Both the position numbers and the translations under genes were made by a program. 64,000 bases of DNA. It comes from an uncultured Gammaproteobacteria bacterium. GTDB lineage: Bacteria > Patescibacteriota > Patescibacteriia > Veblenbacterales > UBA10138. A model generated the notes under the pieces. The model was not told the DNA's origin and made no database searches. It saw only the letters and a list, made by a program, of their open reading frames with translations. Of the stretch, positions 6,649-24,792 are shown piece after piece (within the stretch, counting starts at the first letter, position 1; the number at the start of each line of letters is the position of its first letter). The stretch covers positions 310,029 to 374,028 of the forward strand of contig CAYVOI010000001.1 in the NCBI GenBank assembly GCA_964453605.1. Reading direction: 5' to 3'.

Positions 6649-6724
6649 GCCGTTGTAGCTCAGCTGGTAGAGCAACTCCATGGTAAGGAGTAGGTCGCCG
6701 GTTCAATTCCGGCCAACGGCTCCA
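6649..6724 (+). tRNA. tRNA-Thr (anticodon GGU)
   Basis: Cloverleaf: acceptor gccgttg/caacggc, D arm agctcagctggtagagc, anticodon loop atGGTaa, T arm gccggttcaattccggc, encoded CCA. Confidence 0.85.
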
Positions 6725-6792
6725 GAAGGGGTGGGGTAAATGGCGCAACTCCATGCTTGCCCAGTAGGGAATTGCAAAGCGATTCTGCTTCT

Positions 6793-6836
6793 GGGGTAAG
6801 GAGTAGGTCGCCGGTTCAATTCCGGCCATCGGCTCC
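6793..6836 (+). repeat. Partial duplicate of tRNA-Thr(GGU) 3' portion (anticodon-loop 3' side to CCA), 1 mismatch
   Basis: ggtaaggagtaggtcgccggttcaattccggccatcggctcca is near-identical to 6682..6724. No matching 5' acceptor strand upstream. Confidence 0.75.
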
Positions 6837-6928
6837 AGGCAGCGGGCCAAGCCGGCCACGGGCCGTAAAGCCCTCGCGGGCCCACGGCCCTTTACGAGGC
6901 TCCACGTTCCTTTTACGTTTTTGGTCTC

Positions 6929-7014
6929 GGGTGGGTATCGAAGTGGTCAAACGAGACTGACTGTAAATCAGTTGCCTTCGGGCTTCGCAGGTTCGAATCC
7001 TGCCCCACCCACCA
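6929..7014 (+). tRNA. tRNA-Tyr (anticodon GUA), class II long variable arm
   Basis: Acceptor gggtggg/cccaccc, anticodon loop ctGTAaa, long variable arm, T arm gcaggttcgaatcctgc, encoded CCA. Confidence 0.85.
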
Positions 7015-7087
7015 CGTAAAGCTCGCACAGCTCGCCATGTGGTATTAAAATAGTTGTAAGTGGTGCACCCCGTAGAGGTGCGTCAGC

Positions 7088-7123
7088 ACCTTCTTCGGGG
7101 TTCGAATCCTGCCCCACCCACCA
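7088..7123 (+). repeat. Partial duplicate of tRNA-Tyr 3' end (variable-arm remnant, T arm, acceptor, CCA)
   Basis: ggggttcgaatcctgccccacccacca is identical to the 3' 27 nt of the tRNA-Tyr at 6988..7014. Confidence 0.8.
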
Positions 7124-7191
7124 TTCGGCTCGCTTCGCTCGCTCATGGTAAACCAAGCGAGTCGAATGCCCCGAGCCGAGCCGAGGGGTTG
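7123..7191 (+). repeat. Hairpin plus conserved motif (gagtcgaatgcc ccgagccgagccgaggggttg) shared with the tRNA-Pro locus at 31928..32030
   Basis: 13-bp stem attcggctcgctt/aagcgagtcgaat with one G-U pair. The motif gagtcgaatgcc at 7159..7170 matches 31989..32000 exactly. Confidence 0.6.
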
Positions 7192-7206
7192 AAAAACAAG
7201 CGTGCT

Positions 7207-7407
7207 ATGGGTACACTATACTACGTTTATATGATGCGCTGCTCCGACGGTACGTTCTACGTCGGGATGACAGTCAACCTCGCGGCACGAGAAGCTCGTC
7301 ACATTCGAGGTGATGGCGCGAAGTTTACCAAGTCACATGGAGGAGAACGTATAGTATATCGAGAGCCACATGCTACGTATTTAACTGCACGGCGTAGAGA
7401 GATATAG
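7207..7407 (+). CDS. Stand-alone GIY-YIG nuclease domain protein (YhbQ/UPF0213-like)
   Basis: YYVYMMRCSDGTFYVGMTVNLAAREARH is a GIY-YIG motif; an ERIVYRE glutamate is present. About 66 aa from ATG 7207; the track ORF starts further upstream at an alternative codon. Confidence 0.7.
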   Translation: MGTLYYVYMMRCSDGTFYVGMTVNLAAREARHIRGDGAKFTKSHGGERIVYREPHATYLTARRREI

Positions 7408-7464
7408 ATAAAGAACTGGCGCCGCGAGAAGAAAGAACGTTTACTTTTAGGCCTTAAGCCGTAG

Positions 7465-7539
7465 GCCAGCGTAGCTCAGTGGTAGAGCAACTGTTTTGTA
7501 AACAGTAGGTCGTCGGTTCGACCCCGACCGCTGGCTCCA
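7465..7539 (+). tRNA. tRNA-Thr (anticodon UGU)
   Basis: Acceptor gccagcg/cgctggc, D arm gctcagtggtagagc, anticodon stem actgt/acagt with loop ttTGTaa, T arm gtcggttcgaccccgac, CCA. Flanked by gccttaag direct repeats. Confidence 0.85.
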
Positions 7540-7576
7540 GCCTTAAGTCATCTTATCCGTTTTTGTTTGCCCTCGT

Positions 7577-7732
7577 ATGTCGCAAGATAACCTCGTTAAG
7601 CTTGAGTGCAGTGTGTGTCACCGCATTACCTACCACACCTTCCGCAACAAGAAGAAGGTCAAGGCGCGGCTGGAAACCATGAAGCACTGCCCGTGGTGCA
7701 AGAAGCACACGCTCCACAAGGAGACGAAGTAG
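7577..7732 (+). CDS. rpmG: 50S ribosomal protein L33 (zinc-ribbon type)
   Basis: 51-aa ORF not in the ORF track (<60 aa). MSQDNLVKLECSVCHRITYHTFRNKKKVKARLETMKHCPWCKKHTLHKETK matches the L33 pattern (C-x2-C...C-x2-C and KHT.HKE.K). Confidence 0.85.
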   Translation: MSQDNLVKLECSVCHRITYHTFRNKKKVKARLETMKHCPWCKKHTLHKETK

Positions 7733-7757
7733 CTTACTACTGCCACGTCTCCCGTTT

Positions 7758-7831
7758 GGGGGGTTCGTTCAGTGGTAGGACTTCGGTCTCCAAAACCGAT
7801 AACGTGGGTTCGATTCCTACACCCCCTGCCA
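7758..7831 (+). tRNA. tRNA-Trp (anticodon CCA)
   Basis: Acceptor ggggggt/accccct (G1-U72 wobble), anticodon stem tcggt/accga with loop ctCCAaa, T arm gtgggttcgattcctac, encoded CCA. Confidence 0.85.
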
Positions 7832-7956: not shown

Positions 7957-7982
7957 GAGGGGGATTCCTACACCCCCTGCCA
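7957..7982 (+). repeat. Partial duplicate of tRNA-Trp 3' end (T-loop 3' side, acceptor, CCA) preceded by gagtcggagcgaggggg
   Basis: attcctacaccccctgcca is identical to 7813..7831. The preceding GGGGG can pair with the CCCCC of the acceptor strand to form a minihelix. Confidence 0.8.
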
Positions 7983-8091
7983 GGAAAAAACAGTTCCACC
8001 TTGGGACTGCTTTTTCCTGATGGCTAACGAGGGATCGAAGGTCATGCCTATAGGTATACACTCTTTCGTTTAGGAGTGCTAGACTAGAGCT

Positions 8092-8508
8092 ATGCGAGCA
8101 GAGGCACTAAAGTATGTAGCTATACTAGGGTTGCTGGCTTTTCTGGCCGTGGGAGTTTTTGCTGCTGCTCATATTATGGAAATGCCGATGAATGAGCACG
8201 GTGTAATGACCGGCTGTTGGTTCACGGGCATGGCTGGCCCCTGCCCCATGACCCTGAGTGAACATGTGGCGTCTTGGCACAGCCTTTTCACTAGCGTTCC
8301 GACTACATCCGACACTTTGTCGCTCGTTGTACTCGTTCTAGCGGTATTGCTGGTAGTCCCGCGTTGGTTCGAACGATACCGCAGGTGGGTGGCGGCACGA
8401 CTGGCACTTCTCCCCAGACTGTACCTGAAGTATCACCCCAACCTGACTCTCGCCACTTCGCTACGGGAAGCATTTTCTCAGGGCATTCTCAATCCTAAAG
8501 TGTACTAG
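8092..8508 (+). CDS. Small membrane protein (138 aa)
   Basis: Two or three TM segments. No recognisable motif. Confidence 0.45.
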   Translation: MRAEALKYVAILGLLAFLAVGVFAAAHIMEMPMNEHGVMTGCWFTGMAGPCPMTLSEHVASWHSLFTSVPTTSDTLSLVVLVLAVLLVVPRWFERYRRWVAARLALLPRLYLKYHPNLTLATSLREAFSQGILNPKVY

Positions 8509-8528
8509 CTGGTAGCCAATCTTTATGC

Positions 8529-8554
8529 TTGCGTCTTCCGACGCAGGTTTTTTC
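8529..8554 (+). terminator. Rho-independent terminator
   Basis: tgcgtc-ttcc-gacgca followed by ggtttttt. Confidence 0.7.
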
Positions 8555-8577
8555 GTGACATTACTTACTAAAATTCT

Positions 8578-9396
8578 ATGGAAACATTTCCTCAAACCCA
8601 ATATTCAGAATCCAATTCCGTTCCTCAAGGTGCTGTACCAAGTATGTTCGCCGGTGCCTCGCCTAAACTCACCTTCATCATGGGTTTGGTGACCGGTATC
8701 GCCGTCGTTAGCCTGGCAGGCTTTGTACTAGCTGCCAGCTACGGCTTATCCGGTCGCGCTAGCAGTGCGCTCGGCTCTGCAACTGTAGCAGTCCAAGGCA
8801 CCACCACACCTACACCCTCTGCCGCACCCTCACCCACTTCGCCACCAGCTGCGCCAGGCAAGGCAAACGTCACCCTTAAGCCCGACGACCACATCCGTGG
8901 TCCCAAGGACGCCAAGGTAGTGCTCGTTGAGTACTCTGACCTTGAGTGCCCCTTCTGCAAACGCTTCCACCCCCAAATGCAGCAGCTCATGCAGGAGTTT
9001 TCCGGTCAGGTGGCCTGGGTGTACCGCCACTTCCCGCTCTCATTCCACCAGAACGCCGAGAAAGAGGCTGAGGCCGCAGAGTGCGTGGGTAAGCTCGGTG
9101 GTAATGATAAGTTTTGGGCTTATGTGAACAAGATATTTGAACGTACGACCTCGAACGGTACTGGCTTTGCTTTAGATAAACTAGGGCCGCTGGCGGCAGA
9201 AGTAGGGGTTTCCCAGGGTAAGTTCCAAAGCTGCCTTGATAGCGGCGAGTTTACGGCCCACGTGCAGCAGGACGAGCAGGAAGGCACGGCCTTTGGTGTG
9301 AACGGCACCCCCACTACGTTCGTGAACGGGCAGCCAGTTGAAGGCGCGGTACCCTATGAGCAGTTGAAGCAGGTGGTGCAGAGCTTACTGAAGTAG
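8578..9396 (+). CDS. Membrane-anchored DsbA-like thiol:disulfide oxidoreductase
   Basis: N-terminal TM helix, a Pro/Thr/Ser linker, and a thioredoxin-fold domain with CPFC active site (LECPFCKRFHP). DsbA-family pattern. Confidence 0.7.
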   Translation: METFPQTQYSESNSVPQGAVPSMFAGASPKLTFIMGLVTGIAVVSLAGFVLAASYGLSGRASSALGSATVAVQGTTTPTPSAAPSPTSPPAAPGKANVTLKPDDHIRGPKDAKVVLVEYSDLECPFCKRFHPQMQQLMQEFSGQVAWVYRHFPLSFHQNAEKEAEAAECVGKLGGNDKFWAYVNKIFERTTSNGTGFALDKLGPLAAEVGVSQGKFQSCLDSGEFTAHVQQDEQEGTAFGVNGTPTTFVNGQPVEGAVPYEQLKQVVQSLLK

Positions 9397-9417
9397 TCTA
9401 AAAGCCACAGAGGTAGT

Positions 9418-9984
9418 ATGTCACCCACTATGAGCACTCCACTAGTCGCCATAGGCCGAGCCCTGGCTACCGTATTTCGCCAGTGGCGGTATATCGTGCT
9501 GACCGTAACAGTAGCCATGCTACTGTTCTTACTCGTGGCTTGGATACGCAACTTCTGGTTCCTGTGGTATGTCTTCACTACGCCCGCCTTCAGTTGGGGC
9601 ACTCGGTTTAGCCTGCTCAGTGGCACATTCGCCATGTTTAGGCTCAACACCACGCTGCCTCGCCTCGTATTGTCCGTAACGCTGGTGGTGCTCGCGGGCA
9701 TTAACGTGAGCCTGCTTGTGTTCTACCTCAAGCGCCGGCTGACCCAAGCAGGTGGGGTGGGCACCAGCCTCCTTGGTACGGTGCTCGGCGTACTTGGCAT
9801 TGGCTGCGCTTCGTGTGGTTCGGTTATTCTCACCTTGCTCATCGGCTTTAGCGCCACCGCGAGCTTCTTAGGGTTACTCCCGCTCAGGGGAGCTGAGTTT
9901 GGCCTGGCGGGAGTAACCCTGCTCTTAGGTTCCATCTACCTTACAGCCAAGAAAATTAACAATCCTGTGCTATGTAAAATTTAA
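9418..9984 (+). CDS. Polytopic membrane protein with an intramembrane G-C-x-x-C-G motif
   Basis: 188 aa, about 5 TM helices. The only internal cysteines are GIGCASCGSV inside a predicted TM segment. A C-terminal Cys is also present. Confidence 0.45.
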   Translation: MSPTMSTPLVAIGRALATVFRQWRYIVLTVTVAMLLFLLVAWIRNFWFLWYVFTTPAFSWGTRFSLLSGTFAMFRLNTTLPRLVLSVTLVVLAGINVSLLVFYLKRRLTQAGGVGTSLLGTVLGVLGIGCASCGSVILTLLIGFSATASFLGLLPLRGAEFGLAGVTLLLGSIYLTAKKINNPVLCKI

Positions 9985-10003
9985 GTGTTATACCTGTACA
10001 CCC

Positions 10004-10702
10004 ATGACTAAGCGTTCCATAACAACATTTATCATTGGCGCCATCATCCTTACGGCAAGTTTGATAGCTGGTTCGTTCTTACTTATCTCTCGTGGCCAAG
10101 GTGACGTAGTGAGTACCGAAGCTTTGGCAGCAGATAAGGCCATCTATGACAGTATCCCAACCGAAGCGGGTAAGGTGAATTTCATGCGGCAGAGCGGGAG
10201 CCTAACCAAAGCCGTTAACCCCGAACTCGTAGACCTCGACAGCCAAGTTATCTCCTGTGACCCGAGCGTGGATGGTTTATTGGGGGGCAACCCCACCACC
10301 GGCGGCAGCTGCGCGGCCGGACCAACGGCACTCAAGAGCACCCAGGGCATGTACCTTAGCGGTCAGTGCTGTAGCACTATAACCGACCCTACCGAGTACC
10401 ATGAGAACCTGGAAAAACTACAAGCCTACAAGAGTATGCCCGATATTGTGCTCGACCCCATGCACACGCCTATTGCTTTAGCGAAACAGTGGATTGACTA
10501 CGACCATGCCACGACCCTCACCGCTGACGAGCAGAAGGTGTATGACCAAGCCTATGCTATCTCCAAAGAGAAACCCTGCTGCTGCAAGTGCTGGCACTAC
10601 TTTGTGAACGAAGGCATTGCCAAGAAGATGATTAAGGACGGTACGTTCAACGCGCAGCAGATTGCCGACTACTGGGACGCCTCGGATATCTGTGGTGCGT
10701 AG
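10004..10702 (+). CDS. Membrane-anchored extracytoplasmic Cys-rich protein (10 Cys, including CC and CCCKC clusters)
   Basis: N-terminal TM anchor, then a soluble domain with GQCCST and KPCCCKCWHYF motifs. Confidence 0.45.
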   Translation: MTKRSITTFIIGAIILTASLIAGSFLLISRGQGDVVSTEALAADKAIYDSIPTEAGKVNFMRQSGSLTKAVNPELVDLDSQVISCDPSVDGLLGGNPTTGGSCAAGPTALKSTQGMYLSGQCCSTITDPTEYHENLEKLQAYKSMPDIVLDPMHTPIALAKQWIDYDHATTLTADEQKVYDQAYAISKEKPCCCKCWHYFVNEGIAKKMIKDGTFNAQQIADYWDASDICGA

Positions 10703-10718
10703 TACTCGCCTCTGAAGC

Positions 10719-10749
10719 AAAAAGCAGCTCCAAGATGGAGCTGCTTTTT
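10719..10749 (+). terminator. Rho-independent terminator
   Basis: aaaaagcagctcc-aagat-ggagctgcttttt. Confidence 0.7.
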
Positions 10750-10825
10750 GCTGATAACGATATAACATTTTCATGTATCTATGATAAACTTTTGGTAGGT
10801 CTAATTCTGGTAAGCATCAGAACAT

Positions 10826-11449
10826 ATGTACATCTGCCCCATGCATCCGGAAGTGCGCCAAGAGGTGCCCGGCCGCTGCCCTAGGTGTGGTATGAAGCTC
10901 GTACCCGCTGAGGCCGTGCCAGTAAGGTCAGCACCAAGCGATGATCGCGGCTTAGGAACGTTAACGTGGAAAAGCTACGTCCCCCTGATTGTTATCATCG
11001 GACTCATTTTGTGCGTGACAATTGTAGTCTCGTGGACTGATTATATGCTCGGCAGGTTCTCCATATTTCAGTCGGTCGCCTACTTTATGACGGGATTCTT
11101 TATCGTGTTTGCCGGCTTCAAGCTCATGGACCTACCTGGTTTTGCTGAAGGCTACTCCACCTACGATCTTTTGGCCCGGGCCTGGTTTGGCTATGGTTAC
11201 GTTTACCCCTTCATCGAGCTTACCTTTGGGCTGCTTATGCTCGCTGGTTTGCATCAGGCTTGGTTACCGTGGACTGAGTTTAGCGTTATGGCACTGAGCG
11301 GCTTGGGTGTGGCTATAAAACTAGCCAAGCGCGAGCCATTTATGTGCGCCTGCCTGGGCACGTTCCTCAAAGTGCCGCTTACCTACGTGACCTTGGTTGA
11401 AGATTTTGGCATGGCGGCCTTAGCGTTGGCGCTGGTGTTATTCCGATAG
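10826..11449 (+). CDS. Heavy-metal-binding domain (CPMHP...CPRCGM) fused to a MauE/DoxX-like 4-TM domain
   Basis: N-terminal MYICPMHPEV...PGRCPRCGMKL matches the HMBD found on Cu/Ag efflux components. The C-terminal hydrophobic domain resembles the MauE/DoxX family. Confidence 0.55.
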   Translation: MYICPMHPEVRQEVPGRCPRCGMKLVPAEAVPVRSAPSDDRGLGTLTWKSYVPLIVIIGLILCVTIVVSWTDYMLGRFSIFQSVAYFMTGFFIVFAGFKLMDLPGFAEGYSTYDLLARAWFGYGYVYPFIELTFGLLMLAGLHQAWLPWTEFSVMALSGLGVAIKLAKREPFMCACLGTFLKVPLTYVTLVEDFGMAALALALVLFR

Positions 11450-11465
11450 GTTACTCGCATTTCGT

Positions 11466-11496
11466 CATGGAACCTTTCGTACGAAAGGTTCCATGG
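11466..11496. terminator. Perfect 14-bp palindromic hairpin
   Basis: ccatggaacctttcg-tac-gaaaggttccatgg. No T-run follows, so terminator function is uncertain. Confidence 0.4.
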
Positions 11497-11524
11497 TTAA
11501 AGTTAGCCATAGTTATGTTATGCT

Positions 11525-11565
11525 ATGTCAAGTAAACTTGACATGGGATTTTTGTACTTTATACT
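11525..11565 (+). promoter_or_regulatory. Sigma70-like promoter (TTGACA-16-TATACT) with an 8-bp inverted repeat (ATGTCAAG-n4-CTTGACAT) overlapping the -35, upstream of msrB
   Basis: ttgaca at 11538..11543, tatact at 11560..11565. The palindrome at 11525..11544 is a likely operator. Confidence 0.55.
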
Positions 11566-11598
11566 CTAAGTAGAGCCTAATTTATAACCAATAAGGCC

Positions 11599-12000
11599 AT
11601 GCCAGACAAAATGGTAAAAACCGAGGAAGAGTGGAAACAGCTCCTCACCCCTGAGCAGTACCGTATTTTGCGGCAGAAGGGGACTGAGGCACCTTTTTCG
11701 GGCGAGTACGCTCAAGACCATAGCCCCGGCATGTTCGCCTGTGCCGCCTGTGGACAGCAGTTGTTTTCGTCCGATGCCAAGTTTGATTCCGGCACAGGCT
11801 GGCCAAGCTTTGACCAAGCTATCCCTGGTACCATAGAAATGTACCCTGATGACAGCCACGGCATGCACCGTGTGGAGGTAACTTGTACTCGCTGTGGTAG
11901 TCACCTAGGACATGTCTTCGAGGATGGTCCACGAGACACCACGGGGCAGCGGTTTTGCATCAACTCAGCCTGCTTAAGGCTCCAACCAAAGAAGTCGTAA
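11599..12000 (+). CDS. msrB: Peptide-methionine (R)-S-oxide reductase
   Basis: SelR/MsrB motifs: two CxxC zinc pairs (CAACGQQLF, CTRCGSHLGHVFEDGP) and GWPSF. Confidence 0.9.
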   Translation: MPDKMVKTEEEWKQLLTPEQYRILRQKGTEAPFSGEYAQDHSPGMFACAACGQQLFSSDAKFDSGTGWPSFDQAIPGTIEMYPDDSHGMHRVEVTCTRCGSHLGHVFEDGPRDTTGQRFCINSACLRLQPKKS

Positions 12001-12006
12001 CGCAGC

Positions 12007-12705
12007 ATGCTCCAAGTTCTCTTTGCACTGCTAGCCGGAATACTAACCATTGCGGCACCGTGTATTCTGCCGCTTTTGCCAGTGCTGCTGGGTACATCAG
12101 TTGGGCACCGCAGCAAGACCCGGCCTGTGTTTATAGTACTGGGGTTTATTATAGTTTTTTCACTGGCTGGGTTGCTGCTGGCAACACTAAGCACGAAATT
12201 AGGACTGAACCCAAACACCCTCAGGTTGGTTGCTATTGTTGTACTGGCTTTGTTTGGGGCGCTGTTGCTGTGGCCACTGCCGTTTGAGCTCATAGCAGGC
12301 CGTCTTAGTGGCACGTTTGCCAAGGTGGGTGCAGAGGCCAACCAAGGACAGGGGAACTTGAGTGGGTTTGTGCTTGGTATGACCTTGGGGTTGGTGTGGA
12401 CGCCCTGTGCTGGGCCAGTCTTAGGGACCGTACTCACGCTGGTGGCGCTGCAGCGTGAGCTTACTACAGCCGGGATACTGCTTACCGCCTATGCTATCGG
12501 GGCTGCTCTGCCTATGCTGGCTATTGCCTACGGCGGTCAGTACCTGACGGCTAAAGTCAGGGTACTGACTCGATATACCGGCGTGTTACAGCGTACGTTC
12601 GGGGTGCTCATCATCACCCTCGCGGTAGCGCTCTACTATAACTACGACACTAAGCTCTACGCCGTCCTCCTCGAACACTACCCAACGTTTAACCCTAAGC
12701 TCTAG
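12007..12705 (+). CDS. ccdA: CcdA/DsbD-family thiol-disulfide transmembrane electron transporter
   Basis: 6-TM protein with a conserved Cys in TM1 (AAPCILP) and TM4 (WTPCAGP). Confidence 0.75.
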   Translation: MLQVLFALLAGILTIAAPCILPLLPVLLGTSVGHRSKTRPVFIVLGFIIVFSLAGLLLATLSTKLGLNPNTLRLVAIVVLALFGALLLWPLPFELIAGRLSGTFAKVGAEANQGQGNLSGFVLGMTLGLVWTPCAGPVLGTVLTLVALQRELTTAGILLTAYAIGAALPMLAIAYGGQYLTAKVRVLTRYTGVLQRTFGVLIITLAVALYYNYDTKLYAVLLEHYPTFNPKL

Positions 12706-12709
12706 CACT

Positions 12710-13762
12710 ATGCCTAACAAAACTATTGTGCTCATTACTGCCGCTGTCGTTATACTACTCGTGGCTGCTGGGTTGTACCTTGACCAAAAGGGCAAACATC
12801 CACTTACCAATACAGCGTCCGTCACCGGAACAGAGCCTTCTGCGTCAGCTACTACCATGGGCAAGGTGGAGTTTCAGGACTACGGCACGGCGCCGGAGTT
12901 TACCGGCATTAGCCACTGGCTAAACACCGAACCACTTACCATGGAGAGCCTCCGGGGTAAGGTAGTCCTCATCGATTTTTGGACGTACTCATGCATTAAC
13001 TGCATCCGCACCCTGCCCCACGTAACCGAGTGGTACAATACGTACCAAGACAAGGGTTTTGTGGTTGTGGGGGTACACACACCAGAGTTTGCTTTTGAGA
13101 AAGAAACCGGCAATGTGCAAGCGGCGATTGATCACTTCGGCATTCACTACCCCGTGGCGCAAGATAATGACTACGCCACCTGGGGAGCCTACAGCAACCA
13201 GTACTGGCCGGCTGAGTACTTGGTGGACAAGCAGGGTAGGGTGAGGTATGTGCACTTTGGTGAGGGGAACTACGACCACACCGAGAACGCTATTCGTGAG
13301 TTGCTTGGCTTAAACGATGAGGCAGAGGCAGCCGCCTCGGCTGACAACCTCACTAACGTGGGCTCGCCTGAAATGTACTTTGGTACTGACCGGCTGCAGA
13401 ACTTGGTACGCACACAAACTGCGAAAGCTGTAGCAACCGCCTATGCCTTCCCTAAAGATCTACCGCTTAATACCTTTGCCCTTGAGGGCAGCTGGCAGTT
13501 CTCGCCACAGAGCCTAACGCTCGCAGGGGAGGGAGGTGAGCTACGGCTAAAGTTTCACGCCGGCAAGGTGCACCTGGTGGCCGCGAGCCCAACTTCACCA
13601 GCCGAAGTTACCATTACCGTTGATGGTAAACCCCAGCCTACGGTTACGGTGAGTCAGGCCGAGCTCTACACCTTGTTTAGCTCAGCTGACTACACCGACC
13701 ACGTAATAGACATCAAAGTTCAGGGCCCGGGGTTTCAAGCCTTCACCCTCACCTTTGGCTAA
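12710..13762 (+). CDS. Membrane-anchored TlpA/ResA-like thioredoxin (redoxin family) with a C-terminal extension domain
   Basis: N-terminal TM helix. Redoxin fold with WTYSCINCIRTLPH (CxxC). About 150 aa of extra C-terminal domain. Confidence 0.7.
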   Translation: MPNKTIVLITAAVVILLVAAGLYLDQKGKHPLTNTASVTGTEPSASATTMGKVEFQDYGTAPEFTGISHWLNTEPLTMESLRGKVVLIDFWTYSCINCIRTLPHVTEWYNTYQDKGFVVVGVHTPEFAFEKETGNVQAAIDHFGIHYPVAQDNDYATWGAYSNQYWPAEYLVDKQGRVRYVHFGEGNYDHTENAIRELLGLNDEAEAAASADNLTNVGSPEMYFGTDRLQNLVRTQTAKAVATAYAFPKDLPLNTFALEGSWQFSPQSLTLAGEGGELRLKFHAGKVHLVAASPTSPAEVTITVDGKPQPTVTVSQAELYTLFSSADYTDHVIDIKVQGPGFQAFTLTFG

Positions 13763-13964
13763 ACCTATGCGCCTCGGGAACCAGGTTAAGCGATTGCGCT
13801 TGGTGAAGAACATCACGCAAGAGCAGTTGGCGCGGGTGGTAGGGGTGTCGCGGCAGACTATCATCGCCATTGAGCAGGGGAACTACACTCCCTCGCTGAC
13901 CCTGGCTCTGCAGCTGGCTCACTTTTTTAAAGTTGCAGTGGAGGAGCTGTTTCGTCTAGAGTAA
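13755..13964 (+). CDS. XRE-family HTH transcriptional regulator (YozG-like, 69 aa)
   Basis: ITQEQLARVVGVSRQTIIAIEQGNYTPSLTLALQLAHFF is a canonical Cro/C1 HTH. Confidence 0.75.
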   Translation: MAKPMRLGNQVKRLRLVKNITQEQLARVVGVSRQTIIAIEQGNYTPSLTLALQLAHFFKVAVEELFRLE

Positions 13965-13968
13965 ACGT

Positions 13969-14328
13969 ATGAAACTCATTAGCTACTACCTGTTCCTGCT
14001 GGTGTTCATTGCCCTGCTCACGGGGTTTCTCCTGCAGCGTGGAGCACAGGCCATGAGCATGGGGCAGGTGCTCTCGGTGTCGGTGCTCTTGGGGCTCTAC
14101 GTGGTTGGTATGTCGTTCCTGGGGGAAGGTAAGCCAACCGATGAACGGGCCGTGTTCCACCGCTACCTGGCCAACCGCTACGCCCTGCTCGCCGGCACCG
14201 TCGTGCTCTCCCTGGGTGTACTGGTGCAGCTGTTCACCGAACAGCTCGACTACTGGTTGCTCACGGGTTTGATCGCTATCAACGTAGTAAAGGTGATGAG
14301 CCTCGTGTACTCGAGCCACAAGAACTAA
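13969..14328 (+). CDS. Small 4-TM membrane protein, partner of the XRE regulator (DUF2975/YoaS-like arrangement)
   Basis: 119 aa, hydrophobic. 5 bp downstream of the HTH gene. Confidence 0.5.
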   Translation: MKLISYYLFLLVFIALLTGFLLQRGAQAMSMGQVLSVSVLLGLYVVGMSFLGEGKPTDERAVFHRYLANRYALLAGTVVLSLGVLVQLFTEQLDYWLLTGLIAINVVKVMSLVYSSHKN

Positions 14329-15694: not shown

Positions 15695-16417
15695 ATGGTA
15701 ATTATCTCTGCCCTCATCACGTTCCTATCCACCTTAATTGGTGGCTTGCTCGCGCTGCGCTACAAAGGCAAGCTTAAGTTGGTTCTGGGGTTTACTGCTG
15801 GCGTGCTCCTGGCAGTAGTAGCGTTTGATATTCTACCCGAGGTTATTGAGCTCACCGCGAAAACTGGGGTTCAGGCCCATAAACCCATGTTAGCGTTGGT
15901 GTTGGGGTTCCTGATTTTCCACGTCTTAGAGAAAGCCCTCCTCATTCACCATGCCCAAGAGGCGAGCTATGGCAAACACCGCCACCCCTCGGTAGGGTTG
16001 CTCTCGGCTCTAGCCCTGTCGGGGCACTCGTTTCTTGATGGTGTAGGGATAGGGCTTGGGTTCCAGGTTTCTTCAGCGGTGGGCTTACTCGTAGTGGTAG
16101 CGGTAGTTGCTCACGATTTCAGCGACGGTATGAACACCGTGTCGCTGATGTTAGTAAACAAAAACACCGACCGCAGGGCCCTCGGGCTCTTACTACTCGA
16201 CGCTCTCACACCCACCCTGGGAGCTGCTTCGACGTTCTTCTTCACCCTAACTGAGCCTGCACTGCTCTTGTACCTCGGGTTTTTTGCTGGTTTCTTGCTC
16301 TACATAGGCGCCTCGGACATACTCCCTGAGGCACACAGCGAGGATTCTTCCTGGAAAACGATAGCCATGACCGTGCTGGGGGTGGTATTCATTTTTATCG
16401 TTACCCGATTTGTCTAG
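15695..16417 (+). CDS. ZIP-family divalent metal (zinc) transporter
   Basis: 8-TM pattern, a His-rich loop (HHAQEASYGKHRH), and the ZIP signature GHSFLDGVGIGLG / VAHDFSDG. Confidence 0.75.
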   Translation: MVIISALITFLSTLIGGLLALRYKGKLKLVLGFTAGVLLAVVAFDILPEVIELTAKTGVQAHKPMLALVLGFLIFHVLEKALLIHHAQEASYGKHRHPSVGLLSALALSGHSFLDGVGIGLGFQVSSAVGLLVVVAVVAHDFSDGMNTVSLMLVNKNTDRRALGLLLLDALTPTLGAASTFFFTLTEPALLLYLGFFAGFLLYIGASDILPEAHSEDSSWKTIAMTVLGVVFIFIVTRFV

Positions 16418-16985
16418 CTGTATGCTTGTACACTCCACGGCCGCGCATTACTGGCTTCCCCTAGGCTTCGCTGTCACCATGCTCTGTGGTTTGGTGTACG
16501 TGGCAGTACAACAGAGCTTGCGGCAAGGCGGTAACGACCCACAGATTCAGATGGCTGAAGACCTGGCTGCCCGCGCTAGCCGCGGTGAGGCACTGAGCAG
16601 CTTAGTGCCCGTGGAGCACATTGATCTAGGTTCTAGCTTGGCGCCGTTTGTAATTATCTACGACGAGCAGGGCAAGGTTGTGGCAGGTTCAGGTGAGCTT
16701 GAGGGTAAGCTGCCCCAGGTTCCCTGGGGTGTACTACAGTACACTAAAGCTCATGGCGAAAACCGCCTCACCTGGCAACCGCGGTCAGGGGTGCGCATCG
16801 CAACCGTCACGGCCTACTTCAATGCTCCGACCCAATCAGGCTACGTGCTCGTTGGCCGGTCGCTCCGTGAGGTAGAACGCAGGGTTGGTATGCTCGGAAC
16901 CTACGCGCTCGCGGCTTGGTTTACGGCGTTAGTAGGTTCGTACGTAGCTCTGGCACTGTTGCCTAAACCATCGGGTGCTACTTGA
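16410..16985 (+). CDS. Hypothetical membrane-anchored protein
   Basis: 191-aa ORF with N- and C-terminal hydrophobic segments. Confidence 0.4.
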   Translation: MSSCMLVHSTAAHYWLPLGFAVTMLCGLVYVAVQQSLRQGGNDPQIQMAEDLAARASRGEALSSLVPVEHIDLGSSLAPFVIIYDEQGKVVAGSGELEGKLPQVPWGVLQYTKAHGENRLTWQPRSGVRIATVTAYFNAPTQSGYVLVGRSLREVERRVGMLGTYALAAWFTALVGSYVALALLPKPSGAT

Positions 16986-17643
16986 GGTAGGGGAGTACGT
17001 TTATCCACTGAGCGAGGTCGGCGGGTTTTTGTACGTAGCCTCGCAGGTTGAGGTTCACGCCGCGGTGGAGGCCGAGGTGCAGGTGCTTGCGCTCACCGTC
17101 GGTCTCAGTACTGTAGCCCCGGCCTAACACGCCTAAGCTAGCTCCGGCTTTGAGTTCAGTACCCACTAGGGCAGTTATGCTCGTGAGCTTGAGGTGACCG
17201 TACACAACGGTGATGGGTTGGCCTTGGAGCGTACAAGCCTGAACAGCCACACCACCGTAGCCTGAAGCCCACTTTTTTAGCAAGAGTTTCCCGCTGCAGA
17301 TGGCACGGACCTGGATTGCGCTGTCCTGCTCCCCGGGGAATGTTTCAAAATCAACGCCCGTATGGTAGCCCTGGAACCGCTCTGGGCTAACTGGTGAATG
17401 GGTGGGCGAGACATAGAGGCCAAAGGGTTTGAGGCTCACCCGTTCGAGCGCGCGCTCGAACGGCGCGGTGAGCTCAGGTTTGGTTTGAGGTGTGCTGGCT
17501 TGACTGGCCGAGCTGGTGCCGGGGGGTGCAGGTGTGCTCGAGGTAGAACTTGGAGGCCAGCTACAGCCAGCCAGCAACGCACTGAGCCCCAGTGAAACAG
17601 CAAGGTTTAGGAAACGTTTTAGGTAAACAGCGTGAGGTCGCAT
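16978..17643 (-). CDS. M23-family peptidase lipoprotein
   Basis: Lipobox LLAGCS. GYHTGVDFE and VYGHL match M23 HxxxD/HxH zinc motifs. Confidence 0.7.
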   Translation of the reverse strand: MRPHAVYLKRFLNLAVSLGLSALLAGCSWPPSSTSSTPAPPGTSSASQASTPQTKPELTAPFERALERVSLKPFGLYVSPTHSPVSPERFQGYHTGVDFETFPGEQDSAIQVRAICSGKLLLKKWASGYGGVAVQACTLQGQPITVVYGHLKLTSITALVGTELKAGASLGVLGRGYSTETDGERKHLHLGLHRGVNLNLRGYVQKPADLAQWINVLPYLK

Positions 17644-17716
17644 AGCGGTGCAGGTTAGTGAGTACAGTACCGCGGTTGTACGGAGAGCACAGAGGCACTA
17701 TACTACCTTAGTACTT

Positions 17717-18277
17717 ATGAAAACGTACTCAGATGAAGAGCTGGTGCGCCTGAGCGCTGAGGGTAGCCGCGAGGCCTTGGAAACGTTGGTCGCTCGCTAC
17801 CTCCAGCGTATCTATAGCTTTGCCTATGCTCGGGTGCGTTCGCGGGAAGCAGCCGAGGACATTGCCCAAGACGTGTTCGTGAAAGTGTGGCGGAATTTGC
17901 ACAGGTTTGACCAGGCCAGGCTGTTTAGGCCATGGCTCTACGAAATTGCTCGTAATACCGTGCTCGACGCCCTGAAGAAAAAGTCGGCTCTACCGTTTGC
18001 GCACTTTGCCGCGGCCGATGGGACCAACTGGTTGGAGCAGACCCTGGTTGACGAATCGCAGCAGTTGGAAGGAACTGCCGACCAGGCGCTGGTACGTGAT
18101 AAGCTAGCAGCGGCAGTAGGGCAACTTGCACCTAAGTACGCTGAAGTTGTCTCCCTCCACCATACCAAGGGTTTGCGCTTTAGGGAAATTGCCGAGTCCC
18201 TCAGGGAGCCACTCAACACCATCAAGAGCCGCTACCGCAGGGCAGTGCTGGCACTTAAGGGCATCATCAAGCCGTAG
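17717..18277 (+). CDS. ECF (sigma-70 family group 4) RNA polymerase sigma factor
   Basis: Region 2 (AEDIAQDVFVKVWRNLHRFD) and region 4 HTH (KGLRFREIAESLREPLNTIKSRYRRAV). ATG at 17717. Confidence 0.8.
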   Translation: MKTYSDEELVRLSAEGSREALETLVARYLQRIYSFAYARVRSREAAEDIAQDVFVKVWRNLHRFDQARLFRPWLYEIARNTVLDALKKKSALPFAHFAAADGTNWLEQTLVDESQQLEGTADQALVRDKLAAAVGQLAPKYAEVVSLHHTKGLRFREIAESLREPLNTIKSRYRRAVLALKGIIKP

Positions 18278-18422
18278 TGCACCAGGTTCGCTGCATGTGT
18301 CGTACTCATACATGAGGGCTCTTTAGTCAGCCCCTCTACCTTAGGGTGCTACCTCCGTGCCTTAGGGTATAATGTACATAAGGGTGCACCATTGTGCATC
18401 CTTATGTCGTACTAGGTTAGGT

Positions 18423-18833
18423 ATGGCTATGAATCAACCTCCCGTGCGTGTGCCTGAAGCTTCTCCTGATTTACTGGAGCGGGTACTGCTGAGGCTTGAC
18501 GTGGAGCAGCGCCTGCGTCGGGTGCGGCAGCGTTTGGTAGGTGCCTTATGCTTGGGTGCTGGCTTGTTAGTCTCTGCCATTCCGGCTTGGCACTCGTTCC
18601 AAGTGAACATCGCCCAGAGTGGGTTCAGTGACTTTGTGGGCCTGGGGTTCCACGATTTTAACCTGGTGGCTGCCACCTGGCAGGACTACCTCTTGAGCTT
18701 AGTTGAGTCATTACCCTTGCTTAGTACAACGGTACTCTTGGTATTGCTGTTGGGGGTGCTGTTTGCGGCTAAGCGCGTAGCTGAGTACAGCCGCACGCTC
18801 ATGAGTGGGGCCGAGGCACCGCTTTCAATTTAA
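18423..18833 (+). CDS. Putative anti-sigma factor-like membrane protein
   Basis: Downstream of the ECF sigma. Cytoplasmic N-terminus, one central TM helix, extracytoplasmic tail. Sequence is not diagnostic. Confidence 0.35.
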   Translation: MAMNQPPVRVPEASPDLLERVLLRLDVEQRLRRVRQRLVGALCLGAGLLVSAIPAWHSFQVNIAQSGFSDFVGLGFHDFNLVAATWQDYLLSLVESLPLLSTTVLLVLLLGVLFAAKRVAEYSRTLMSGAEAPLSI

Positions 18834-18842
18834 GCAAAATGT

Positions 18843-19352
18843 ATGGATACAGCAGCATTTTTTAGGTCAGTCTGGTTCACCCGCGCTCTCTATGGGCTGG
18901 GTGGCCTGATTGTGCTCCTCACTGTGTTCCAGCTCGGGGTGGTGGTAGGGTTTCACAAGGCAAGGTTTTCCTACCGTTGGGCAGAAAACTACCACCGTAC
19001 GTTCGGTGGCCCCCGCGCGGGCCTGTGGGGTGATGTAGAGGATCATGAGTTTATGGACAGCCATGGTTTGGTCGGTACGGTTATAAAAGTTGATGGGACC
19101 TCGGTAGTTGTGAAAGGCTCCGACGGTCTAGAGAAAGTTATTAGTACCACCCCTGCCACAACCCTGGAGCGCGGGCGACAAGTAGTGCAGCTTAGTGATC
19201 TTAAAGTCGACGATAAAATTGTGGTCCTAGGCTCGCCGCAAGATGACGGCTCGATTGCGGCTAAGTTCATTCGCATTTTTGATCAACTATTCGACCAGGC
19301 GCTGCCGCCACCTCCGCCGAGCGGGTTTCACTTCAAACCGTTGGGGTTTTAG
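18843..19352 (+). CDS. Membrane-anchored protein with a beta-rich domain paralogous to the N-domain of the 23099..23812 protein
   Basis: VIKVDGTSVVVKGSDGLEKV...DDKIVVLGSPQDDGSIAAKFIRI resembles KDDKSITVKMRDGSTKIVFF...GKQVTVMGMANSDGSVTAQSIQL. Confidence 0.4.
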   Translation: MDTAAFFRSVWFTRALYGLGGLIVLLTVFQLGVVVGFHKARFSYRWAENYHRTFGGPRAGLWGDVEDHEFMDSHGLVGTVIKVDGTSVVVKGSDGLEKVISTTPATTLERGRQVVQLSDLKVDDKIVVLGSPQDDGSIAAKFIRIFDQLFDQALPPPPPSGFHFKPLGF

Positions 19353-19373
19353 GACCAGCGGTACTGTACTTCT

Positions 19374-21134: not shown

Positions 21135-21150
21135 AGCTACTCCCCACACC

Positions 21151-21840
21151 ATGATTGAGTGCAAGAACATAACCAAGGTCTACCAGAGCGGGGGCACTGC
21201 TACCACAGTGCTTAAAGGTGTGTCGTTTACTGTTCGAGACGGCGAGTTTGTGGCTATCATGGGCCCTTCGGGCAGCGGTAAGAGCACCCTCATGCACATT
21301 TTAGGCGGGCTCGACACGCCAACGAGCGGTACCTACGTGCTCGATGACAAGGACGTGTCTACACTTTCGGACGACGATCTGGCGGAAGTGAGAAAGAACA
21401 GCATCGGGTTTGTGTTTCAAGCCTTTAACCTGCTCCCTCGCGCCAGCGTTTTACGGAACGTGAGCTTGCCGCTGGTCTACGCCAACATTCCCCGTGCCGA
21501 GCGCGAGCAGCGTGCCCGTGAGGCTCTGACACAGGCGGGTATGGAGGAGGAGCGGTTCCACCACCTTTCAAACCAGCTCTCCGGTGGGCAGATGCAACGT
21601 GTGGCAATAGCGCGGGCCTTGGTTAATAATCCAAAACTCGTGCTGGCTGATGAACCAACCGGTAACTTGGACACTAAGACTGGCGAGGTGGTGCTGAAAA
21701 CTTTTCAAGAGCTTAACGCCCAAGGCCACACCATTGTGCTCATTACCCACGAGCACGACGTAGCGAGCCACGCGCGGCGGATAGTTTCGATTCGCGATGG
21801 CAACATTGTAGACGACCAAATGGTTACCCAGCATCTATGA
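21151..21840 (+). CDS. ABC transporter ATP-binding protein (MacB/LolD type)
   Basis: Walker [10 protein letters not shown], signature [15 protein letters not shown], Walker [13 protein letters not shown]. Confidence 0.85.
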
Positions 21841-23060: not shown

Positions 23061-23098
23061 TGTAACTTTACTGTGCTTATTTTTTAGTTAGAGCACGT

Positions 23099-23812: not shown

Positions 23813-23928
23813 CTTGCTCGTGCAAGTTTGGCGAAGCGCGAAGCTTAGCCAAATTTTCCTGTGGATTACGTCTTTTTTTGAGTGGAGTATACTGATGGTA
23901 TCATTTTTAACCACTAAGGAGTCAACCT

Positions 23929-24717: not shown

Positions 24718-24792
24718 CGGATTGTGCTGCGGCGGGGACCTACGGTCCCCGCCGTTTACGTAGTGTGTCAGGTACAGCTACAATAGCTGTAT

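Follow-up and report, generated by a model that had tools for sequence, protein, structure and literature searches.

Do the seven consecutive plus-strand genes at positions 8578-13762 make up a single extracytoplasmic pathway of thiol redox and methionine repair, as the original prediction held? The genes were examined within a 64,000-nucleotide stretch of DNA, referred to as the window. We find that the span is at least three (three or four) independently transcribed units and not one pathway. The units, predicted from hairpins, a promoter and comparative data, are a DsbA operon with two cysteine-motif proteins, a copper-type HMBD–MauE gene, and an msrB–ccdA–dipZ operon with a candidate repressor.

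Gene content of the span

All seven open reading frames (ORFs) were present, and every testable domain assignment of the original prediction was borne out by Pfam searches (Table 1). These include the DsbA-like oxidoreductase with a CPFC active site (g1), the HMBD–MauE fusion (g4), MsrB (g5) and CcdA (g6). The protein g2, which has no Pfam match, is multi-spanning and carries the GCxxCG motif. Two descriptions were amended. The predicted 10-Cys ectoprotein, g3, is an ectoprotein with one N-terminal transmembrane (TM) segment, but has nine cysteines. The predicted TlpA-like lipoprotein, g7, is a CxxC thioredoxin, but has a signal-anchor TM segment and lacks a lipobox Cys; its C-terminal domain contains no Cys. 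The functional neighborhood is wider than the seven genes, with g0 upstream and g8 and g9 downstream.

Table 1. Genes and predicted signals of the span and its flanks (window coordinates)
Feature	Position	Strand	Details
Hairpin, 18-nt arms with A/T tracts	7981..8019	.	Inverted repeat 89% complementary; terminator scan
g0, 138 aa, two TM segments	8092..8508	+	External loop M..G.M..C(8-9)C.M...EH; C-terminus GILxPK
Intrinsic-terminator-like hairpin (9 bp) and U6 run	8527..8554	+	-15.3 kcal/mol, z -2.3; between g0 and g1
g1, membrane-anchored DsbA-like oxidoreductase, 272 aa	8578..9396	+	Thioredoxin_4 4e-29; DSBA 2e-21; CPFC; one N-terminal TM
g2, polytopic membrane protein, 188 aa	9418..9984	+	GIGCASCGS
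g3, signal-anchored ectoprotein, 232 aa, 9 Cys	10004..10702	+	One N-terminal TM
Perfect 17-bp hairpin, flanking A5 and T5 tracts	10716..10752	.	-29.1 kcal/mol, z -5.9
g4, HMBD fused to MauE/DoxX membrane domain, 207 aa	10826..11449	+	HMBD 5e-13; MauE 2e-9
Perfect 14-bp hairpin 3' of g4	11465..11496	.	-22.2 kcal/mol, z -4.3
Operator-like 20-bp palindrome	11525..11544	.	ATGTCAAGT-AA-ACTTGACAT; right arm includes -35 box
Sigma-70-like promoter, msrB operon	11538..11565	+	TTGACA-16-TATACT, 11/12
g5, MsrB, 133 aa	11599..12000	+	SelR 5e-51
g6, CcdA-type membrane electron transporter	12007..12705	+	DsbD_TM 2e-15; Cys19, Cys134 in PCxxP-type motifs
g7, thioredoxin domain and Thioredoxin_10	12710..13762	+	AhpC-TSA/Redoxin; Thioredoxin_10 8e-33; CxxC is CINC
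g8, XRE-family HTH regulator	13755..13964	+	Gene caller start 13767
g9, 4-TM protein, 119 aa	13969..14328	+	Always accompanies XRE gene in related loci

Transcription units

Strong predicted hairpins after g3 and g4, together with a promoter and operator belonging to msrB, argue against the single seven-gene system that had been proposed, and related loci likewise split into independent modules. The hairpin after g3 is predicted to be a strong bidirectional terminator closing the g1-g2-g3 unit. That after g4 is probably a terminator, since a second copy in the window, at 54966-54989, lies between convergent genes. Upstream, the hairpin between a tRNA cluster and g0 is probably a bidirectional terminator, and the one between g0 and g1 is a possible attenuator. 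The hairpins and the consensus promoter are predictions rather than transcript maps, and read-through is possible.

Because of the hairpins after g3 and g4 and the separate msrB promoter with its palindrome, we delimit msrB–ccdA–dipZ'–xre–membrane gene as unit B. A single copy of the palindrome is present in the window, against none expected by chance, and neither it nor the msrB promoter is found elsewhere in the window. The palindrome is kept in 10 loci of g7 relatives, where it precedes the operon or immediately precedes the XRE gene. The XRE-family regulator g8 is a candidate repressor acting at this palindrome, and g9 may be its sensor partner. Unit B (11525-14328) is a predicted autoregulated stress operon, comprising promoter and XRE operator, msrB, ccdA, dipZ', xre and the membrane gene.

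Unit B: a cytoplasmic MsrB and an electron-import pair

Spacers of 7 nt between msrB and ccdA and of 4 nt between ccdA and the thioredoxin gene hold the core of unit B together. CcdA (g6) and the extracytoplasmic CxxC thioredoxin (g7) are a genuine electron-import pair; among 69 loci of g7 relatives, CcdA is fused to the thioredoxin or encoded directly upstream in 54, and an XRE gene with a TM gene follows downstream in 11-12. Residues 45-350 of g7 align to the soluble region of Mycobacterium tuberculosis DipZ (Rv2874; PDB 2HYX, 5CYY) at 2.5e-72, and g6 corresponds to its CcdA-type membrane half. Most relatives have the fused, full-length form. DipZ of M. tuberculosis is likewise a single protein, whereas the window has two genes, grouped with msrB and the XRE/membrane-protein pair in one predicted operon. 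Because CPR-type organisms, among them the host of the window, generally lack c-type cytochromes, the clients of a DipZ-type protein here must differ from those in M. tuberculosis.

MsrB (g5) has two Zn-type CxxC pairs (C48/51, C96/99) and Cys120 in the motif RFCINS. Since no hydrophobic segment, signal peptide or TM segment was found in g5 (maximum Kyte-Doolittle value 0.5), whose ORF could not be extended upstream, we place this enzyme in the cytoplasm on sequence grounds. The original prediction had likened the genes to the streptococcal pathway (CcdA to Etrx/TlpA to MsrAB) that repairs oxidized surface methionines. An electron-import pair packed with msrB is indeed present, but the surface-exposed, membrane-anchored Msr that defines the streptococcal system (PMC3914529) is not. 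In the Streptococcus pneumoniae CcdA1/2-Etrx1/2-MsrAB2 system, as in unit B, ccdA and an msr gene share an operon with the gene for an extracytoplasmic CxxC protein of thioredoxin fold, and cytoplasmic thioredoxin is the presumed electron source. The pneumococcal system differs in that MsrAB2 is TM-anchored and surface-exposed, whereas the MsrB of the window is soluble, carries no export signal and is not joined to an MsrA domain, and in that its thioredoxin is a lipoprotein and not a signal-anchored, DipZ-type protein.

At least 9 of the 69 loci have MsrB next to the DipZ relative. Five of these MsrBs, in more distant DipZ loci, bear Tat or Sec signals, so the pathway named in the original prediction exists elsewhere; in the three loci closest to that of the window, MsrB lacks both a signal peptide and TM segments. 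None of the 69 DipZ loci has g1-g4 alongside. In unit B, cytoplasmic thioredoxin would supply two sinks: MsrB, repairing Met-R-sulfoxide inside the cell, and CcdA, passing reducing equivalents over the membrane to the anchored DipZ-type thioredoxin and on to envelope clients.

g4: a predicted copper-regulon membrane protein

Lying between two hairpins, g4 is proposed to be a separate, monocistronic membrane protein of a copper regulon. Its HMBD is of the type found as the N-terminal metal-binding domain of copper P-type ATPases and matches residues 39-74 at the N-terminus of Legionella pneumophila CopA; the MauE match scores above the Pfam gathering threshold. Both domains are present in all listed g4 homologues except a truncated self-match, and an intramembrane C174-x-C176 (CxC) is invariant. 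CsoR is encoded directly upstream of g4 relatives in two of the four contexts examined. The design would combine a cytoplasmic CopA-type metal-binding domain with the intramembrane CxC. P1B-type Cu(I) ATPases (L. pneumophila CopA, 3RFU) share the N-terminal HMBD, and their CPC motif resembles the CxC of g4; in contrast, g4 lacks ATPase domains and measures just ~200 aa, with 4-5 TM segments. It belongs to the MauE/DoxX family of membrane proteins; to our knowledge, the sole studied role of MauE is in maturation of the disulfide-rich small subunit of methylamine dehydrogenase.

Unit A: a DsbA and two uncharacterized cysteine-motif families

Unit A consists of the small membrane protein g0 upstream, the DsbA g1, the GCAxCG membrane protein g2 and the poly-Cys ectoprotein g3. 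No family match for g0 was found in Pfam or NCBIfam, and related loci conserve g0 immediately before the DsbA gene (HMM matches in 13 loci). For g1, the gene caller of the source contig chose an internal start at 8644 (250 aa). Its nearest solved relatives are 4N30, BdbD, four ScsC structures and Corynebacterium diphtheriae DsbA, the last two at about 1e-9 to 1e-12; C. diphtheriae DsbA is the reductant of CueP (PMC4546943).

Invariant residues of g2 are GxGCAxCxS (C130, C133), P155, G158, E160 and a C-terminal C186. Searches of Pfam, NCBIfam and PDB sequences gave no match to g2, and a fold search gave nothing DsbB/VKOR-like. Its topology appears to be N-in/C-in, with the CxxC within a membrane helix and the C-terminal Cys cytoplasmic. 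Fused forms have an extra TM segment after the third conserved Cys, and one fused variant begins with a cytoplasmic segment, rich in Cys and zinc-ribbon-like, which a P-type ATPase also carries.

The g3 family has the core GSCC...GPCCCxCW..GLAKxLI...CG, and no family, sequence or fold match was found in Pfam, NCBIfam or PDB. Seven to eight Cys do not vary in a set of 38 representatives (<=50% identity), no His is conserved family-wide, and His/Met-rich C-terminal tails are common among relatives. In one relative SCO1/SenC is joined to the g3 core; in another, g3 is fused to YtkA. Both g2 and g3 represent uncharacterized families.

Distribution and copper context of unit A

Relatives are rare, being present in 269 of 185,579 species genomes and forming 153 clusters at 50% identity. 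They are concentrated in CPR bacteria and DPANN, with others in Thaumarchaeota, Gammaproteobacteria and a few further groups; identity across domains is 55-60%. Neighborhood counts rest on crude ORF calling. Of 76 non-redundant g3 loci, 34 have a DsbA gene in the same orientation no more than 1.5 kb away, and 29 have g2 so placed; g2 is absent from ~60% and g0 from ~90%. MsrB was found in none of the 76, and 19 have at least one CcdA or Trx-like gene.

Copper markers (CsoR, CopY/BlaI, multicopper oxidase, P-type ATPase, Lrp-TRASH) were found in 45 of 64 long g3 loci and in 0 of 21 long DipZ loci used as controls (Fisher p = 3e-9); the controls differed in taxonomic composition and their flanks were shorter. 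Thirty-four g3 loci encode a CPx-motif P-type ATPase, and one locus sits amid CusABC, multicopper oxidase, DUF411 and CopA. ArsR-type regulators also occur, and recombinase genes are present in 11 loci. Within the window, no CsoR, CopY or P1B-ATPase gene adjoins unit A and no CopY box was found near it; a cupredoxin protein, an HlyD/MacB pump and a Zip transporter are encoded 5-14 kb away.

Discussion

We favor, at a probability of roughly 0.55, the reading that the span is not one pathway and that unit A is an envelope system for copper and thiols that resembles Scs/CueP and is made of new parts. From the observed gene content, domains, conservation, synteny, hairpins, promoter/operator, context enrichment and domain fusions, we infer metal binding, a direction of thiol chemistry and clients as follows. 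The ectoprotein g3 would be a membrane-tethered poly-cysteine protein that binds Cu(I) with the thiolates of its vicinal CC and CCCxC motifs and serves as chaperone or sink. Its dedicated ScsC/CdDsbA-like oxidoreductase, g1, would form or resolve the right disulfides such that ligand cysteines stay usable. The membrane protein g2 would be a thiol relay whose intramembrane CxxC and cytoplasmic Cys shift metal or reducing equivalents between the cytoplasm and g1/g3, and g0, with its small Met/His/Cys loop, would be an analogue of ScsA.

The known systems closest to this arrangement are Scs of Salmonella, Proteus and Caulobacter (ScsA, ScsB, ScsC, ScsD; PMC11634996) and the DsbA-CueP pair of C. 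diphtheriae (PMC4546943). Shared with them are the DsbA-fold Thioredoxin_4 protein (g1), a small membrane protein with a putative Cu site (ScsA, g0), a membrane-anchored TlpA-like thioredoxin (ScsD, g7), a DsbD-family electron importer (ScsB, g6), a Cys-bearing envelope copper protein as the end point (CueP, and g3 in its proposed role) and, for relatives of unit A, a copper-resistance context. However, CueP and g3 are not homologous, and g3 lacks a known fold; nothing in Scs corresponds to g2, and g6 is a minimal CcdA without the periplasmic domains of ScsB. Moreover, the reductive pair g6/g7 of the window lies in the other operon, with a candidate XRE repressor, and travels with msrB.

A variant in which g2 is a new CcdA/ScsB-like importer of reductant, and no metal relay, is possible but unlikely. 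Electrons would pass from thioredoxin through the C-terminal Cys to the CxxC and keep g1 and g3 reduced, with g3 still the copper-binding end point. This would suit the N-in/C-in topology, intramembrane CxxC and cytoplasmic Cys of g2, the precedent of ScsC, whose reduction by ScsB enables copper sequestration (PMC11634996), and those g2-less g3 loci that sometimes have CcdA and Trx-like genes instead (one or both in the 19 loci above). Against it, homology to DsbD/CcdA in fold or motifs was not found, only a single cytoplasmic Cys is conserved, and the zinc-ribbon-like segment shared with a P-type ATPase is typical of metal-handling proteins.

CPR and DPANN lineages generally lack quinone biosynthesis, and g1-g2-g3 could instead generate disulfides in quinone-less organisms, with g2 (with or without g3) re-oxidizing DsbA as a DsbB/VKOR analogue and a metal-thiolate center in g3 perhaps serving as the electron sink. 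The tight, conserved DsbA-g2-g3 order, the conserved CxxC in a g2 membrane helix, the concentration in CPR and DPANN and the fact that no DsbB or VKOR was seen in the loci agree with this. We nonetheless consider it improbable: the rarity of the family fits an accessory rather than a housekeeping trait, most g3 loci lack g2, relatives extend to Thaumarchaeota and Gammaproteobacteria, and the genomic context is one of metal resistance. Moreover, g2 has only three conserved Cys, the third apparently cytoplasmic, and its fold search returned nothing of the DsbB/VKOR kind.

Similarly doubtful is that g3 is a receptor, or a secreted or structural protein rich in disulfides, which depends on its own DsbA for folding and merely co-travels with metal genes on mobile islands, or that its target is Hg, Cd, Ag or Zn and not Cu. 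Eight conserved Cys could give four disulfides, the recombinase genes would fit mobile islands, the cross-domain identity points to horizontal transfer, and ArsR-type regulators respond to several metals. Vicinal CC/CCC motifs, however, are rarely disulfide-bonded and are typical thiolate-cluster ligands, as in KPCCxC of Cox17; the SCO1 and YtkA fusions and His/Met tails favor metal chemistry, and CsoR, CopY/BlaI and Lrp-TRASH are specifically copper-type regulators. Least credible is the single extracytoplasmic system in which CcdA and a TlpA-like thioredoxin serve a surface MsrB, with DsbA and metal proteins as accessories: the close packing of msrB, ccdA and the thioredoxin gene, the MsrBs (some exported) beside other DipZ relatives and a weak similarity of g7 to pneumococcal Etrx structures (4HQZ, 2YP6) are outweighed by an MsrB that, unlike the anchored pneumococcal enzyme, has no export signal here or in the closest loci, by the predicted terminator hairpins and separate promoter/operator, and by the mutual absence of g1-g4 from DipZ loci and of MsrB from g3 loci.

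Returning to the Scs/CueP-like reading, units A and B may interact functionally to some extent, because CcdA or Trx-like genes do occur in a subset of g3 loci. We propose that unit A is an envelope module that moves by horizontal transfer and is linked to stress by copper or other thiophilic metals.

Gene content and domain assignments

All seven consecutive + strand ORFs of the original prediction were found at exactly the positions it gave (Table), and the HMM searches that it proposed, run against Pfam and NCBIfam, backed five of them (g1, g4, g5, g6 and g7). The DsbA-like CPFC oxidoreductase, g1, was recovered as Thioredoxin_4/DSBA (4e-29; PF13462, 102 bits; PF01323, 77 bits) with its CPFC active site and an N-terminal TM anchor. 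It has the Trx fold, helical insert, CxxC and extracytoplasmic placement of the DsbA/BdbD/ScsC (Thioredoxin_4) class. The HMBD-MauE fusion expected for g4 carries both domains above the Pfam gathering threshold (HMBD, PF19335, 5e-13, 49.2 bits vs 23.6; MauE, PF07291, 2e-9, 38.2 bits vs 27). MsrB (g5) was identified by SelR (5e-51, 172 bits against a 24.9-bit cut-off) and TIGR00357 (168 bits against 113), with cysteines at 48/51 and 96/99 (Zn-type CxxC pairs) and at 120, and CcdA (g6) by DsbD_TM (2e-15). The product of g7, previously described as a TlpA-like CxxC thioredoxin and lipoprotein, has AhpC-TSA/Redoxin and Thioredoxin_10 (PF17991, 8e-33) matches and the CxxC, but it is signal-anchored without a lipobox Cys and so is not a lipoprotein. 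The ectoprotein g3 has nine cysteines rather than ten. Searches of Pfam, NCBIfam and the PDB sequences gave no family match for g2 (GIGCASCGS) or g3.

The neighborhood extends upstream to g0, a 138-aa protein with two TM segments, and downstream to an XRE regulator (g8) and a 4-TM protein (g9). Homologues are overwhelmingly from Patescibacteria. Further upstream lie a tRNA cluster and two small ORFs recognized by eye, and a series of transporter, pump and cupredoxin genes downstream gives the window a loose metal/efflux flavor, with no P1B ATPase or CsoR in the window.

Table. Coordinates of genes and predicted elements in the window
Feature	Position	Location or content	Remarks
Four clustered tRNA genes	6649-7831	Thr-GGT, Tyr-GTA, Thr-TGT, Trp-CCA	
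ORF	7060-7407	GIY-YIG-like YYVYMM..G.FYVG motif	by eye
51-aa Cys4 ORF	7577-7732	resembles ribosomal protein L33	by eye
Predicted terminator-like hairpin, 9-bp + U6	8527-8554	3' of g0	only ~30 nt before annotated g1 start
TAAAAT box	~8569-8574	between g0 and g1	
g1, DsbA-like	8578-9396	unit A	
g2, GCAxCG membrane protein	9418-9984	unit A	
g3, poly-Cys ectoprotein	10004-10702	unit A	
Predicted hairpin, perfect 17-bp	10716-10752	3' of g3; A + T tracts at flanks	-29.1 kcal/mol, z -5.9
g4, HMBD-MauE	10826-11449	+ strand	
Predicted hairpin, 14-bp	11465-11496	3' of g4	-22.2 kcal/mol, z -4.3
Second copy of 14-bp hairpin	54966-54989	between convergent genes	
Predicted promoter TTGACA-16-TATACT	11538-11565	upstream of msrB	sole strong promoter match in region
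Candidate XRE operator			ATGTCAAGTAAACTTGACAT
g5, MsrB	11599-12000	unit B	
g6, CcdA	12007-12705	unit B	
g7, DipZ'-type thioredoxin	12710-13762	unit B	
Downstream genes	15695-27405	Zip transporter, ECF sigma factor, two DUF5666 proteins, P2-type cation ATPase, HlyD/CusB-like adaptor with MacB-type ABC pump	
DUF5666-cupredoxin fusion	23099-23812	one of the two DUF5666 proteins	

Transcription units and regulation

Intergenic gaps are 21 and 19 nt along g1-g2-g3 and 7 and 4 nt along msrB-ccdA-g7. Predicted hairpins behind g0, g3 and g4 partition the region (Table). Since g4 is bracketed by hairpins in the window, it was treated as a separate copper-regulon gene. The -35 box of the predicted msrB promoter sits within a 20-bp palindrome, ATGTCAAGT-AA-ACTTGACAT, of which the window has a single copy (chance expectation 0). 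Ten loci with g7 relatives also contain the pattern RTGTNAAGTNNACTTGACAT, which precedes the orthologous operon or lies directly upstream of the XRE gene. From these sequence features we infer an operon running from msrB through the membrane gene, probably autoregulated by the XRE protein. The palindrome was not found upstream of g0, g1 or g4, and the idea of shared regulation was dropped. The original prediction had joined all seven genes in one extracytoplasmic methionine-repair and thiol-redox module; sequence prediction and comparative evidence instead place them in separate units with unrelated regulation, an outcome that the prediction itself had named as counting against it.

The palindrome that follows g4, GGAACCTTTCG..CGAAAGGTTCC, stands at a gene end in both of its positions, with 2 mismatches and 0 occurrences expected by chance, and may represent either a terminator used twice or a short repeat element. 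The layout of the g0-g1 gap suggests either attenuation or a transcript from ~8580 that uses an internal ATG at 8644.

MsrB, CcdA and the DipZ-type thioredoxin

Residues 45-350 of g7 align to the soluble region of DipZ from M. tuberculosis (2HYX, 5CYY) at 2.5e-72, with a Trx domain followed by a C-terminal beta-sandwich domain as in DipZ, and g6 and g7 therefore constitute a split DipZ. In the M. tuberculosis protein the CcdA domain is part of one polypeptide, whereas in the window it is encoded by a separate gene; relatives of g7 include both fused and split forms. With Cys19 and Cys134 in g6, and C95-x-x-C98 behind one TM segment in g7, the two adjacent genes encode a CcdA-type transporter and an extracytoplasmic Trx-fold CxxC partner. 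Among 69 metagenomic loci with g7 relatives, CcdA was fused to or directly upstream of the relative in 54, an XRE gene with a membrane partner lay directly downstream in 11-12, and MsrB adjoined in at least 9; g1-g4 stood beside a g7 relative in none. Unit B is a further instance of an already known type of system.

The genes had been likened to the CcdA-Etrx-Msr surface-repair pathway of streptococci. This pathway needs a membrane-anchored, surface-exposed Msr, and in pneumococcus the enzyme carries a TM segment (PMC3914529). No TM anchor, lipobox or signal peptide was found in the window MsrB, which reaches a maximum 19-residue Kyte-Doolittle value of 0.5 with no TM-like window and whose ORF is bounded by an upstream stop codon. 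It lacks a hydrophobic segment, and the locus is therefore not a streptococcal-type pathway. Judged by sequence, g7 and MsrB would lie on opposite sides of the membrane, and unit B may be a thioredoxin-dependent stress operon that serves both membrane faces, with MsrB inside and CcdA supplying DipZ' outside. An analogy to SOQ1, whose C-terminal domain has reported Msr activity, was rejected because the C-terminal domain of g7 is without cysteine, so a SOQ1-type tandem mechanism does not apply.

The MsrBs beside g7 relatives form two classes: those of the closest loci have no signal, like that of the window, and those of more distant loci have Tat-like or Sec-like signals. In the metagenomic loci L133, L163, L129/L131 and L162, an MsrB gene with such a signal comes after a full-length DipZ gene. 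By sequence, a pairing of DipZ with periplasmic MsrB looks genuine in other lineages, and no description of it was found in the literature searched.

The g3 and g2 families

At least 321 clusters of g3 were obtained at 90% identity and only 153 at 50%, and the family is therefore small. It is present in 269 of 185,579 species genomes, most of them from CPR, DPANN and Thaumarchaeota, along with a few from Gammaproteobacteria and one each from Brocadiaceae and Anaerolineales. The CPR-type query shares 52-61% identity with its relatives from Thaumarchaeota and Gammaproteobacteria, which suggests horizontal transfer. In 38 representatives, C103, C122, C123, C192, C193, C196 and C230 are invariant and C194 is nearly so, with no invariant histidine. 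A PDB sequence search gave no match, and no homology in sequence or fold was found to CueP, Sco, CopG/DUF411, Csp or Cox17. An Erv/ALR sulfhydryl oxidase, considered for the PC..C..HYF-like motif, was dropped in the absence of a fold match and of family-wide His conservation. The CC...CxC-aromatic...GLAKxLI core also occurs in a remote sister family (hhalign 96%). One relative is a SCO1/SenC protein fused with the g3 core, another joins g3 to a YtkA-like domain, and many members have His/Met-rich C-terminal tails, all of which points the same way as the copper-gene context of g3.

The 79 homologues of g2 share an invariant GxGCAxCxS, P155, G158, E160 and a C-terminal Cys. A PDB sequence search with the g2 profile found no match. 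By sequence or fold, g2 gave no match to DsbB, VKOR or ScsB/DsbD, the known types of membrane redox partner that might adjoin g1, and the four-helix core, two essential Cys pairs and quinone site of DsbB/VKOR were not found in it. In two proteins a g2-like domain is joined, across an additional TM segment, to a Cys-motif ectodomain of another kind, and one of the two begins with a cytoplasmic zinc-ribbon-like segment that it has in common with a P-type ATPase; the g2 termini are therefore placed in the cytoplasm. These fusions, of 554 aa (L007, 10697-12361) and 495 aa (L084, 2947-4434), have large ectodomains with YRPCC(N/G)NST.F.DCNHG and C-terminal GGG.CG motifs and no Pfam match, and appear to represent another uncharacterized Cys-motif family within the same loci. 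HMM comparison found no true g3 domain in them (the motif is PCC...C.H...CG), so they serve as a parallel architecture only. In the Patescibacteria locus L005 (9187-9780), and also in L012, a g2 homologue downstream of g3 is without GCAxCG (ALRAASSVSDARRAV) and is probably frameshifted or decaying.

Genomic context of g3 and g4

In 76 non-redundant g3 loci, counted like the neighbors of g7 relatives with a simple ORF caller and single-sequence or small-HMM searches, a DsbA gene lay beside g3 (same strand, <=1.5 kb) in 34 and anywhere in the locus in 47, and a g2 relative lay beside it by the same measure in 29. CcdA-like and Trx-like genes each occurred in 14, g0 in 8 and MsrB in none. Repeated neighbors were CsoR, a BlaI/CopY repressor with a BlaR1-type protease, Lrp-TRASH, ArsR, multicopper oxidase and a DUF3105-like protein, and 34 loci held a CPx-motif P-type ATPase. 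One locus is flanked by CusABC, multicopper oxidase, DUF411, HMA-DsbD_2-cupredoxin proteins and CopA. Copper markers were present in 45 of the 64 g3 loci of at least 10 kb vs 0 of 21 DipZ loci (Fisher p = 3e-9), the latter controls being shorter contigs of another taxonomic mix. Two close relatives, L002 (8701-9195) and L005 (8952-9203), encode right after g3 a small protein that has no Pfam match but contains a motif rich in His (MHPIHTHDxSGxIHIESP); it may be a further metal-binding partner, and it does not occur in the window.

All 119 listed homologues of g4, among 1552, carry HMBD and MauE except a truncated self-hit, which supports the long start of this gene at 10826. C174-x-C176 within a membrane helix is invariant, and the HMBD aligns with the N-terminus of L. 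pneumophila CopA. Of four contexts, two have a CsoR gene immediately upstream of the g4 relative. Full-length g4 relatives occur in only three g3 loci, in two of them directly beside g3. In the literature searched, nothing relevant was found on CPR disulfide systems, HMBD-MauE, or MauE/DoxX with CsoR.

Proposed function and significance

While the gene observation of the original prediction stands, its interpretation is supported only in part. Unit A is a putative Scs/CueP-like system on uncharacterized families. In it, g3 would be a tethered Cu(I)-thiolate protein and g1 an ScsC/CdDsbA-like oxidoreductase serving it, with g2 a possible membrane thiol relay, for metal or for electrons, and g0 a small ScsA-like protein whose loop contains Met, His and Cys. 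Scs with CueP is the closest known system, but unit A departs from it considerably: both g3 and g2 represent new families, another operon contains the reductive pair, and in the window unit A has no flanking copper regulator and no CopY box nearby. We regard as improbable the bolder proposal that g2 and g3 serve g1 as a membrane thiol-relay machine unrelated to DsbB, VKOR or DsbD, which would set envelope-Cys redox in quinone-free CPR/DPANN cells with a copper-thiolate centre of the new-fold g3 ectodomain as redox or metal cofactor. If true, it would be a third bacterial and archaeal solution to disulfide and copper handling, spread horizontally across domains.

For annotation, surface methionine repair should be inferred from msrB lying beside ccdA and a thioredoxin gene only where the Msr has an export signal. 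DipZ-linked MsrBs are a mixture of exported and cytoplasmic enzymes. The conserved XRE operator is a regulatory element open to direct testing in organisms beyond culture. Annotators and biochemists can readily start from two motifs, GSCC...GPCCCxCW...CG in the g3 core and GCAxCG in g2. If the Scs/CueP-like reading of unit A is true, it adds three uncharacterized protein families, one without a detectable fold relative, to the envelope copper/thiol-stress toolkit, and ultra-small CPR/DPANN cells and ammonia-oxidizing archaea would have in common a mobile Scs/CueP-like solution made of different parts.
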